Shown: positions 8,842 to 11,892 of the stretch, one piece after another | Layout: each line of letters begins with the position of its first letter | Numbering within the stretch: position 1 is the first letter of the stretch | Assembly (NCBI GenBank): GCA_046543005.1 | Contig: JBKHAG010000001.1 | Coordinates: forward strand, 1,632 to 65,631 | Length of the DNA: 64,000 bases | Direction: 5' to 3' | Source of the DNA: Candidatus Woesearchaeota archaeon | GTDB taxonomy: Archaea > Nanobdellota > Nanobdellia > Woesearchaeales > SKGA01 | Translations under genes and position numbers: made by a program | The notes under the pieces: model-generated | Seen by the model: the letters and a program-made list of their open reading frames with translations, nothing else | Told to the model about the DNA's origin: nothing | Databases searched by the model: none

Positions 8842-10551
8842 ATGGAGAAAAATATGTTACGAACACACACATGCGCAGAATTACGAGCAACAGACGTAGA
8901 CCAAACAGTAACCCTTGCGGGTTGGGTTCATAGTATTCGAACTCACGGAGCACTAACCTTTATTGATATACGAGATCGTTATGGACGAACTCAACTCACT
9001 ATTGAAAATCTTAATCAAGAAATTGGTAAAGAGTTTGTTATTAGTGCAACAGGAATTGTGGTAAAAAAAGATCAACCAAATAAGGAACTCGCAACTGGAG
9101 AAATCGAAGTAAAAGTTGAAAAGCTTACTATTTTAAACACTTCAAAGGCTCTCCCCATAGATGAACACGCAACTGACGAAACAAAATTACAATATCGTTA
9201 TATTGATATCAGAAATAATAATGTTTTACAGCACTTAGCTTTTAGAAGTAAAGTTTCACACGCAACAAGAGAGTTTTTTGAACAAAATGAATTCTTAGAA
9301 ATTGAAACTCCTTATTTGATGAAATCAACACCGGAAGGTGCTCGAGATTATGTTGTTCCATCAAGAGTTAATCCAAACGAATTCTATGCACTTCCGCAAA
9401 GTCCTCAACTCTATAAACAGATTTTAATGATTGCTGGAGTGGATAAATATTATCAACTTGCACGAGCGCTTCGTGATGAAGATTTGCGTGCAGACAGACA
9501 ACCAGAACATACTCAAATAGATTTTGAAATGAGTTTTGTGCACCAATCTGACGTTCAAGAATTTACTGAAAAATTACTTAAACACATATTTAAAAAAACA
9601 ATGAATATAGAACTTGATAATTTTCCAGTCTTTAGTTATGATGAAGCTATGAGCCGGTTTGGCAGCGATAAACCAGATATTCGATTTGGACTGGAACTTT
9701 CCAATATTACTACAATTGCAAAAACTACAGAATTTAAAGTTTTTAATTCTGCAGACATGGTCAATGCCATTTTTATCGAAGAAAAATTATCTAGAAAACA
9801 AATTGACAAGTACACTGATTTTGTTAAAATCTATAAAGCAAAAGGTTTGGCCTACGCACAAGTTATAAATAATAAACTTGACGCAGGTATTAGTAAATTC
9901 TTAGACTCAACGACTCAAGAAAAAATTATTAAAGCAGTTGGATGCTCAGATAAAGAAGGTACCTTATTATTTGTTGCAGATAGTGAAAAAATATCTCAAA
10001 GCGCTCTTGGTTTTTTGCGAAAAAAACTTTCTGAAGATTTTAATCTTACAAACTCTGATGACTTCAAATTTTGTTGGGTTAATGATTTCCCTTTATTTTC
10101 TTATAATGAAGACGAACAACGATGGGAGCCAGAACACCACATGTTTAGTATGCCTAAAGAAGAATTCATTGATGACTTTGAACAACGACCTCAAGAAACA
10201 AAAGGCGACTTATGGGATTTGGTTCTTAACGGTTGGGAAATGGCATCAGGTTCTATTCGAGTAAGCAATCCTAAAATTCAAGAACGTATTATGAATTTTG
10301 TTGGCTTTGATAAAGAGGAAGCTCAAAAAAGATTTGGCTTTTTGTTACACGCATACGAATATGGGGGTCCTATTCATGGCGGAATGGGAATCGGTCTTGA
10401 TAGACTTGTTACGCTTATGCTAAAACTCTCAGATATTCGAGAAGTTATCGCGTTTCCAAAAAATAAACATGCGCAATGTCCAATGGATGGTTCGCCAAGT
10501 CGCATTTCACAAGAACAACTTGATGAACTTAACATCAGTTTAAAAAAATAA
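8842..10551 (+). CDS. aspS: Aspartyl-tRNA synthetase, bacterial type (with insertion/GAD-like domain, 569 aa)
   Basis: N-term OB fold [44 protein letters not shown]; motif 2 region [47 protein letters not shown] is the bacterial AspRS signature; class II motif 3 [11 protein letters not shown]. Confidence 0.85.
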   Translation: [569 protein letters not shown]

Positions 10552-10596
10552 AACTATGCACACAAAAATAAACAAAAAATCCTTAGAGGTATAACG

Positions 10597-11892
10597 ATGA
10601 AAGAATTTCAAACTATAAAAGAAGCGATGAGTCAAGGAAAGGGTCGTGTAAATATTCGCGGCTGGGTCTATAGAGAAAGAGGTAATAAAAATATTCAGTT
10701 TATCGTTCTTCGTGACGCGCAACACATTATTCAATGTGTTGTTGAAAAACTAGTTGTTGGAGAGGATATGTTTGAGCAAGCAAGTAAAGTTCAAATTGAA
10801 ACTGCTATGAGTATTACCGGAGACATTGTTGCCGACAAGCGAGCACCATCAGGTTTTGAAATTAAAGTAAAAGAATTAGAAATTATTGGTGACTGCGACA
10901 CATTTCCTATTGCAAAAGATAATTCACCAGAATTTCTTCTTGATATTAGACATCTTGCTTTACGTACAAGAAAACAAGCAGCAATACTTCGTATTCGAAG
11001 TTCATATGTTCAAGCGCGCGAACAATTTTTCAAAGAAAAAGATTTTTTTAGATTTGATGCGCCAATTTTACAACCTAATCAAAGCGAAGGCGGAAGCACA
11101 TTATTTAGTGTGAATTATTATAAAGAAAAAACCTTCCTTTCACAAAGTTGGCAATTATATGCTGAAGCAGCAGTGAGTGCTCTTGAGCGAATTTACAATT
11201 TTGGTCCTACGTTTCGAGCTGAAAAAAGCAAAACTTCTCGTCATTTAAGCGAGTTTTGGATGGCCGAAATGGAAGCTGCTTGGTTTGATCTTAACGATAT
11301 TATTTCTTTTGCATTTGAAGAATTAAAATTTTGTATTCAACAAACTGTTAAAGAACGCAAAGAAGATTTTATTCTTCTTGGACAAGACCCTCAAGCGCTT
11401 CTTGAGATGTGCGATAAAGAATGGCCTGTTATGAAATACCGTGAAGCTCTTAGTTTAATTAAAGAAAAAGAAAATATGGATATTCCTTTTGGTAAAGATT
11501 TACGTACTGAAGAAGAAAAAGCATTGATGAATCATTTTGATACACCAGTTGCTGTAACGCATTATCCTGTAAAAGCAATGGCTTTTTACAAACCTCGAGA
11601 TCCGCAGTTTCCTGATGAAGCTCTTTGTGTAGATATTCTTTCACCAACAGGCGTGGAAATTACTGGCGGAAGTCAACGGTCTATGGATATTGAGGATATG
11701 AAAAAACGCCTTCAAGCAGAAGATGAAGATCCTGCAAATTACCAATGGTATTTTGATACAAGAATATATGGTGGTGTTCCACACAGTGGTTATGGTATTG
11801 GAACTGAACGAGTTATTCAATGGATCACAGGTACAGAAAACATCAAAGATTGTATTCCATTTCCTAGAACTATGCTTCGTTGGAGTCCATAA
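10597..11892 (+). CDS. asnS: Asparaginyl-tRNA synthetase
   Basis: FRAEKSKTSRHLSEFWMAEMEAAWF (AsnRS-type EFWM.E.E.A), GGSQRS...YGGVPHSGYGIGTERV class II motif 3; 431 aa. Confidence 0.75.
   Translation: MKEFQTIKEAMSQGKGRVNIRGWVYRERGNKNIQFIVLRDAQHIIQCVVEKLVVGEDMFEQASKVQIETAMSITGDIVADKRAPSGFEIKVKELEIIGDCDTFPIAKDNSPEFLLDIRHLALRTRKQAAILRIRSSYVQAREQFFKEKDFFRFDAPILQPNQSEGGSTLFSVNYYKEKTFLSQSWQLYAEAAVSALERIYNFGPTFRAEKSKTSRHLSEFWMAEMEAAWFDLNDIISFAFEELKFCIQQTVKERKEDFILLGQDPQALLEMCDKEWPVMKYREALSLIKEKENMDIPFGKDLRTEEEKALMNHFDTPVAVTHYPVKAMAFYKPRDPQFPDEALCVDILSPTGVEITGGSQRSMDIEDMKKRLQAEDEDPANYQWYFDTRIYGGVPHSGYGIGTERVIQWITGTENIKDCIPFPRTMLRWSP

Follow-up and report, generated by a model that had tools for sequence, protein, structure and literature searches.

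The window considered here is a 64,000-nucleotide stretch of a Candidatus Woesearchaeota genome (NCBI assembly GCA_046543005.1, contig JBKHAG010000001.1, positions 1,632 to 65,631 of the forward strand), and our subject is two adjacent genes within it, aspS and asnS, which encode an aspartyl-tRNA synthetase (AspRS) and an asparaginyl-tRNA synthetase (AsnRS), respectively. The first open reading frame (ORF) runs from 8842 to 10551 on the forward strand and corresponds to 569 amino acids (aa), the length given in the first-pass annotation. A GGAG at 8844-8847 lies 6 nt 5' of a second ATG (8854), and because of this spacing, the start site seen in homologues and the calls of public gene callers, the true start is probably the second ATG; the ORF stands as first described, though the protein is probably one of 565 aa. 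Residue numbers below count from the ATG at 8842.

This AspRS had been called bacterial in type for its hallmark segment, [27 protein letters not shown], which is indeed present, and the profile models bear the assignment out. The enzyme scores 732 bits with NF001750 (cutoff 443) and 683 bits with TIGR00459 aspS_bact (cutoff 374), the matches covering residues 4-568; the archaeal-type model NF003483 reaches 215 bits, under its cutoff of 353, in two stretches of which the N-terminal half matches better. The Pfam architecture consists of an N-terminal OB fold, the class II core (tRNA-synt_2) and a GAD insertion, and none of the features of an archaeal/eukaryal-type enzyme (a model score above cutoff, a length of about 430 aa, no GAD) is found in the ORF. 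By sequence, the closest solved structures are Thermus thermophilus AspRS1 (520 bits) and Escherichia coli AspRS (486 bits), whereas the archaeal type of Pyrococcus and Thermococcus reaches 157 bits over the N-terminal half only. An AlphaFold model (predicted local distance difference test, pLDDT, 87; predicted template modeling score, pTM, 0.85) superposes on Thermus AspRS1 with a template modeling (TM) score of 0.89, within a Thermus/E. coli range of 0.88-0.90, as against 0.57 with the archaeal enzyme. Both the motif that binds aspartate (QSPQLYKQ; consensus QSPQxxKQ) and class II motif 2 (consensus RDEDxRxDRQPE) are intact. Judged from its sequence and predicted fold, the window AspRS is a bacterial-type, catalytically intact enzyme.

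The second ORF encodes 431 aa and scores 454 bits with the AsnRS model NF003037 (cutoff 414) and 411 bits with TIGR00457 (cutoff 343), while the archaeal AspRS model gives 328 bits, under the cutoff of 353. Its motif QSWQLYAE is without the aspartate-binding Lys of QSPQxYKQ, and its nearest solved relatives are the AsnRS of T. thermophilus (351 bits) and Pyrococcus horikoshii (342 bits). By these marks it is a true AsnRS, and the first-pass description of a genuine AsnRS 45 bp downstream of aspS holds. The gene has a Shine-Dalgarno sequence of its own, GAGGT at 10586-10590, 6 nt 5' of its ATG. The two genes are probably co-transcribed, since no terminator is obvious by eye in the spacer, for which no terminator scan was made. 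Among the loci scanned, so tight a tandem (45-63 bp) occurs only in the window and in L169, which has an 87% identical AspRS. Nine loci, spread over several sub-lineages, have asnS no more than 3.5 kb from aspS, far more than would be expected if the gene were placed at random in a genome of about 1 Mb. One AsnRS homologue, P0163, 68% identical to the window protein, is deposited as 'Patescibacteria group bacterium', a label to be explained by mis-binning of the contig or else by gene transfer between DPANN archaea and the candidate phyla radiation.

The surroundings of the pair are archaeal. The first-pass annotation had noted archaeal/eukaryal neighbours, and translin, NAC, RPA and TrpRS genes are all found in the window, together with an archaeal RNase P RNA at 24403-24761 on the reverse strand; the latter appears to be a divergent or reduced RNA, because its score of 84.2 barely attains the Rfam gathering threshold of 84. 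No tRNA gene was found in the 64 kb. The guanine-plus-cytosine (GC) content is uniform across the window at about 0.33. By a naive distance, aspS had looked like a codon-usage outlier (about 2.7 standard deviations), an impression that was dropped once a length-corrected simulation gave z = 2.1, rank 8 of 46 genes, with translin and several metabolic genes scoring higher; aspS is biased toward C-ending codons. The compositional trace of a transfer, which the first-pass annotation had proposed to look for in GC and codon usage, thus did not appear. One might also ask whether a bacterial fragment has been joined to an archaeal contig by faulty assembly or binning. The mixed-domain gene content is all that speaks for such an artefact, and we regard it as scarcely credible: the same arrangement is recovered independently in NCBI and Logan assemblies, dozens of contigs carry aspS beside archaeal genes (ribosomal proteins, RpoD, translin), and GC is uniform. 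It was rejected on these grounds.

Homologues of the enzyme are abundant, and those that carry names are consistently named. Among the 120 best (100%-55% identity), every source-named one is from Woesearchaeota, Nanoarchaeia or Nanoarchaeota, as are all named matches from 100% down to about 41% identity; an identical protein has been deposited from a Nanoarchaeia/Woesearchaeota metagenome-assembled genome (MAG). More than 240 homologues were assigned to the archaeal clade, and all of these with a source name are archaeal. An exhaustive search of 50%-identity representatives returned two of more than 50% identity and the rest at 47% or less. One of the two apparent sister representatives, P0384, is labelled Woesearchaeota (the other is P0268), and the next groups outward, P0241, P0243 and P0384, are also Woesearchaeal. 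The best named bacterial AspRS are 45-47% identical to the window enzyme. In neighbour-joining trees with a simple distance correction, the window's own group has a bootstrap of 100, all 42 of the 42 archaeal-labelled sequences form one clade in the AsnRS-rooted tree (bootstrap 63), and 84 archaeal sequences group together to the exclusion of 24 named bacterial enzymes (bootstrap 92).

The clade also has active-site substitutions of its own, namely CLRDED..EHTQ in motif 2 where bacteria usually have CFRDED..EFTQ, and HHMF (residues 432-435, about 10135-10146) for HHPF. The motif 2 changes fall at non-invariant positions. All of these substitutions are rare in the mostly bacterial representatives, of which 13 of 144 have the Leu and 16 of 144 the His. 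They are shared by P0245, P0310, P0341, P0354 and P0363, which could mark the donor lineage or further archaea. Gene order is conserved too: a block of T2SSE ATPase, four small membrane ORFs, translin and aspS recurs in relatives down to 58% identity, and translin lies directly or within a few kb upstream of aspS in L001, L005, L009, L090, L095, L128, L169 and L170. Taken together, the distribution, clade, substitutions, synteny, GC and codon usage indicate that the bacterial-type AspRS has been inherited vertically over a long period within the order Woesearchaeales.

These results bear directly on the claim, made from the window alone, that aspS was acquired horizontally from bacteria. A recent acquisition by this genome would account for the bacterial type of the enzyme and for a naive codon-usage distance that is somewhat high, yet we consider it most improbable, for the identities of the archaeal-clade homologues run from 100% down to about 45%, aspS keeps a conserved synteny with archaeal genes, the codon z-score lies below those of translin and other native genes, and the best named bacterial sequences are no closer than noted above. 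The clade structure refutes it, and it was rejected. Phylogeny instead puts the gene within a sizeable clade of long-form AspRS that archaea have inherited vertically (bootstrap 63-92), the very placement that the first-pass annotation had named as counting against its proposal. What survives of the claim is the bacterial origin; what does not is any suggestion that the event was recent or took place in this genome.

As to origin, the archaeal enzymes stand at a mean tree distance of 1.03 from all others, which equals the mean among those others (mostly bacterial, 1.03), and the AsnRS-rooted tree places the archaeal clade inside the bacterial radiation, albeit without support. Two loci, L016 (a Woesearchaeota MAG) and L135, are particularly informative because they carry an archaeal-type AspRS beside the bacterial type, at 6430-7740 and 8431-9735, respectively, both on the reverse strand. 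These proteins score 501 bits with NF003483 (cutoff 353), contain QSPQFYKQ, and are encoded divergently, 230-300 bp from a bacterial-type aspS-gatC-gatA. Such loci fit the intermediate expected if a foreign gene was first added and the native one then displaced. With GAD, the equal mean distances, the position of the clade inside the bacterial radiation and these co-resident archaeal-type enzymes, we favour transfer of aspS from a bacterium to an archaeon as the best reading of its sequence relationships.

Alternatively, the long form might be an ancient, vertically inherited archaeal paralogue whose clade stands outside all Bacteria. The poorly separated deep nodes of the trees and the clade's conserved active-site substitutions would suit such a history, which we nonetheless consider improbable. 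Archaea outside this group use the short archaeal-type AspRS, the form found in the PDB entries from Pyrococcus and Sulfolobus. Moreover, archaeal-to-bacterial distances are no larger than those among mostly bacterial sequences, the rooted tree (again without support) puts the clade within the bacterial radiation, and L016 and L135 still encode the native type next to the long form. Returning to transfer from a bacterium, we infer its direction and age: any such event would be an ancient one that took place no later than the base of the order, because of the monophyly of the clade, the conserved upstream synteny and the native codon usage.

About 160 loci with flanking sequence were scanned for gat genes, asnS and archaeal-type AspRS. 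Most archaeal relatives carry gat genes downstream of aspS, and in L124 the set is complete, in the order aspS, acyltransferase, gatC, gatA and gatB. GatC scores 92 bits (cutoff 47) and GatB 527 (cutoff 338), and GatA is the best match at 442-447 bits, slightly under its strict cutoff of 481. The 64 kb of the window yielded neither gatA, gatB nor gatC, and the same holds for the regions flanking aspS at nine further loci that share with it a shortened loop in the anticodon-binding domain, described below; nor was an archaeal-type AspRS found anywhere in the window. Of 34 long-loop loci, 22 have gat genes in their flanks, versus 0 of 10 short-loop loci (Fisher p = 0.0005), the short-loop flanks amounting to about 200 kb in all with the whole window included. 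In its relatives, aspS is clustered with gatCAB, and the aspS-asnS arrangement is the derived one.

The loop lies in the domain that reads the anticodon. Reviews state, in general terms only, that non-discriminating (ND) specificity, the charging of tRNA(Asn) as well as tRNA(Asp) with aspartate, resides in the anticodon-binding domain. In the gat-linked relatives, the beta1-beta2 hairpin bears a His, and a segment of 18 residues has the form R-x-R-x-x-G-x-x-N; the pattern, His and Gly included, is exactly that of the experimentally non-discriminating enzymes of Helicobacter pylori (5GRO) and Pseudomonas aeruginosa (4WJ3, His31 and Gly82 by count on the chain). Discriminating Thermus AspRS1 has Leu and, in the HMMER alignment, a two-residue gap at the Gly, and discriminating E. 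coli AspRS has Leu30 and Lys81. In the window enzyme, the loop is two residues shorter than in the gat-linked relatives, the Gly is gone, and the gap is the same as in Thermus AspRS1; the deletion falls in the middle of the beta4-beta5 loop, between model strands 62-71 and 84-95. His35 is retained, as it is in nearly all of the clade (236 of 242 sequences, versus 75 of 144 mostly bacterial representatives). At the loop position where ND enzymes have Gly, the bacterial-type enzymes of L016 and L135 have Asp or Glu instead.

When the loop columns are masked, the window enzyme falls in a 23-member clade (bootstrap 95) nested among the gat-linked long-loop enzymes, and all its members are short-loop except L100, which is weakly placed. 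Closest to this clade is the L005 group (joint bootstrap 90), in which aspS is linked to asnS but the loop is still long. The short-loop enzymes thus form a derived subclade without nearby gat genes and often with asnS nearby.

We lean, with modest confidence, towards the interpretation that in the window lineage tRNA(Asn) is charged directly by AsnRS, that AspRS is now discriminating, and that the route through ND-AspRS and GatCAB has been abandoned. A number of points weigh against this interpretation or against the history in which it is embedded, and the reader should keep them in mind. The signature is mixed, in that His35 is ND-like, and discriminating E. coli AspRS also has a long loop, so that loop length alone is not diagnostic. 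According to Bernard et al. 2006 (J Bacteriol), His31 and Gly83 (Gly82 by count on the 4WJ3 chain) reportedly matter in tRNA(Asn) recognition, and the meaning given here to the His and Gly depends on that report and on four enzymes of known specificity. The His/Gly signature should thus be treated as a lead rather than as proof. The short-loop group is approximately one clade, so the Fisher test reflects one evolutionary event and not ten. The 64 kb examined are only part of the genome, and GatCAB or an archaeal-type AspRS could lie elsewhere. Three loci (L098, L099 and L109) have both asnS and gatA/gatB in the aspS neighbourhood, in the order aspS, asnS, gatB in L098 and L099, which makes coexistence possible. 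Finally, neighbour-joining with simple correction was the sole tree method, and the deep AspRS nodes have bootstraps near 0, by which neither nesting within the Bacteria nor the donor is demonstrated.

Several of these points would be expected if the window AspRS were still non-discriminating, with GatCAB encoded elsewhere in the genome and AsnRS and transamidation existing side by side, the latter as the cell's source of asparagine, as in Thermus, Deinococcus, Bdellovibrio and Staphylococcus aureus. DPANN archaea have little biosynthetic capacity. The retained His35 could still permit mischarging of tRNA(Asn), L098, L099 and L109 combine all three kinds of gene in one neighbourhood, and the literature reports the dual route to be common where AsnA and AsnB are missing. 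We nevertheless judge this unlikely, though far from negligible, as the Gly-containing loop is deleted just as in discriminating Thermus AspRS1 and the roughly 200 kb around ten short-loop aspS genes hold no gat gene, against 22 of 34 long-loop loci with one.

As a whole, the observations are probably best explained by one ancient acquisition, an ancestral ND-AspRS with GatCAB, and a later shift to AsnRS in the sub-lineage of the window. An early Woesearchaeales ancestor would have acquired the bacterial-type AspRS once, from a bacterial donor, and passed it on vertically ever since. The ancestral state of the order would have been a non-discriminating AspRS with GatCAB, making Asn-tRNA(Asn) through transamidation, and the acquired system would first have coexisted with the native archaeal-type AspRS, both of which two sampled genomes still keep. 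In the sub-lineage of the window, the gat genes would then have become unlinked from aspS, AsnRS come to lie 45 bp downstream, and the Gly-containing loop been shortened; the prediction is that AspRS there charges tRNA(Asp) while AsnRS charges tRNA(Asn) directly.

A bolder proposal, which we put forward only tentatively, is that the Woesearchaeales preserve every intermediate in a cross-domain replacement of Asp/Asn-tRNA charging. The series would begin with genomes that combine the native archaeal AspRS with an acquired bacterial ND-AspRS and GatCAB (L016, L135), pass through bacterial ND-AspRS and GatCAB alone and then through this state with AsnRS added (L098, L099, L109), and end with AsnRS and a bacterial AspRS made discriminating by the two-residue loop deletion, as in the window. 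If this is true, tRNA specificity would have been switched naturally by a minimal change, the deletion, and the order would offer a ready series for studying how a charging pathway is swapped without loss of fidelity.

The features of the locus are collected in the table below.

Features of the aspS-asnS locus (positions in the window)
Feature	Position	Strand	Basis
translin gene, upstream synteny partner of aspS	8162..8776	+	Pfam PF01997
aspS, bacterial-type AspRS with GAD	8854..10551 (ATG 8842 alternative)	+	NCBIfam, Pfam, AlphaFold model
N-terminal OB-fold anticodon-binding domain, residues 23-98	8908..9135	+	Pfam PF01336; five strands in model
His35 codon	8944..8946	+	column shared with P. 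aeruginosa His31
beta4 end and beta4-beta5 loop, residues 71-86, [16 protein letters not shown]	9052..9099	+	loop classes
class II motif 2, [19 protein letters not shown]	9466..9522	+	column counts
GAD insertion, residues 302-389	9745..10008	+	Pfam PF02938, 63.6 bits
A-rich 45-bp spacer	10552..10596	+	read directly from sequence
asnS, short-form AsnRS (about 430 aa)	10597..11892	+	NF003037

Some Woesearchaeal bacterial-type AspRS are longer than that of the window, at 726-755 aa, and end in a C-terminal YbaK/ProX-like editing domain (PF04073). Such fusions are seen in P0088 (residues 596-715), P0119, P0242, P0429, P0430, P0444, P0521 and L010:360-2597, and relatives without the fusion encode a free-standing family member of 156-160 aa 3-5 kb downstream of aspS (L001:16282-16752, L170:14969-15451); no PF04073 domain was found in the window. 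The fused domain could deacylate mischarged tRNA. To our knowledge, no AspRS with an editing-domain fusion has been known.

When interpreting database labels for this family, one should exercise some caution. In the case of L008, L009 and L012, all titled 'uncultured Methanosarcinales archaeon', the AspRS is of the Woesearchaeal clade. L009 (0.33) and L012 (0.31) have a Woesearchaeota-like GC; in L009 the gene directly upstream of aspS is translin, and in L012 an asnS of Woesearchaeal type follows 2.4 kb downstream. By their GC and these neighbours, the labels of the two look wrong. L008, with a GC of 59%, may represent a different host.

Elsewhere in the window, the ORF at 18845-20056 on the forward strand encodes a queuosine-type tRNA-guanosine(34) transglycosylase (TGT), with 402 bits to TIGR00430 (cutoff 307) and 142 to the archaeosine-type TgtA model (cutoff 350); L124 has a queuosine-type TGT at 8221-9318 on the reverse strand, two genes upstream of aspS. 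A Metallophos (Mre11-like) ORF at 11948-13441 on the reverse strand would be 497 aa from its GTG, and because it then overlaps the next gene and public calls give 405 aa (L002), its true start is probably near 13165. Two regions, 30395-35806 and 39700-63883, consist of a long run of ORFs, mostly on the reverse strand, without Pfam matches among those scanned, and include predicted proteins of 1803, 1073, 1422, 1176 and 1187 aa. These giant ORFs may encode surface proteins, of a kind typical of DPANN archaea.

Comparison with known systems helps to place the window enzyme. Thermus AspRS1 (1EFW, 6HHV) is its top match by both sequence and fold, at 43% identity, with the same OB, core and GAD domains and the same short beta4-beta5 loop without Gly, and Thermus also has an AsnRS. 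The two differ in that Thermus has Leu at the His35 column, HHPF where the window has HHMF, and Phe/Phe in motif 2 where the window has Leu/His, and in that the host of the window enzyme is archaeal. With the non-discriminating AspRS-GatCAB system of H. pylori and P. aeruginosa (the asparagine transamidosome; 5GRO, 4WJ3), the relatives of the window share the His and Gly and a gatC-gatA-gatB cluster; the window enzyme keeps the His, whereas the Gly has been lost by the two-residue deletion, and asnS is next to it with no gat gene within the 64 kb. The window AsnRS, at about 430 aa and 342-351 bits, resembles those of P. horikoshii and T. thermophilus (1X54, 5ZG8), with no functionally notable difference.

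Thermus and Deinococcus possess a bacterial-type discriminating AspRS1 together with a horizontally acquired, archaeal-type non-discriminating AspRS2 and GatCAB. L016 and L135 are similar in combining cross-domain transfer, both structural types and gat genes, but the direction is reversed, as here an archaeon took up the bacterial type. A further difference is that in most of the order, the window included, only the acquired type is found near the locus, which suggests that the native AspRS has been displaced in most of the order.

Cross-domain transfer of a synthetase is a known kind of event, and the window protein is already annotated as an aspartate--tRNA ligase. Castelle et al. 2021 (PMC8204110) described bacterial systems, the queuosine pathway among them, that reside in Woesearchaeota and Pacearchaeota, and the queuosine-type Tgt of these DPANN bacterial sets is also present in the window; AspRS, AsnRS and GatCAB are not mentioned in the main text or available supplements of that paper. 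In the searchable literature, we found no prior description of an order-wide bacterial-type AspRS in Woesearchaeota or DPANN archaea, and no paper on a co-resident archaeal-type AspRS or on the alternation of aspS-gatCAB and aspS-asnS.

What the locus adds is a set of related genomes in which the acquired enzyme occurs with the native one, with GatCAB, with GatCAB and AsnRS, and with AsnRS alone. This series would tie a two-residue change in the anticodon-binding loop to a switch from indirect to direct Asn-tRNA synthesis, and it provides a testable hypothesis on how AspRS tells tRNA(Asp) from tRNA(Asn). Genes of the translation core would thereby join the bacterial systems resident in DPANN archaea, and we would caution that AspRS is unsuited as a vertical marker for this phylum.

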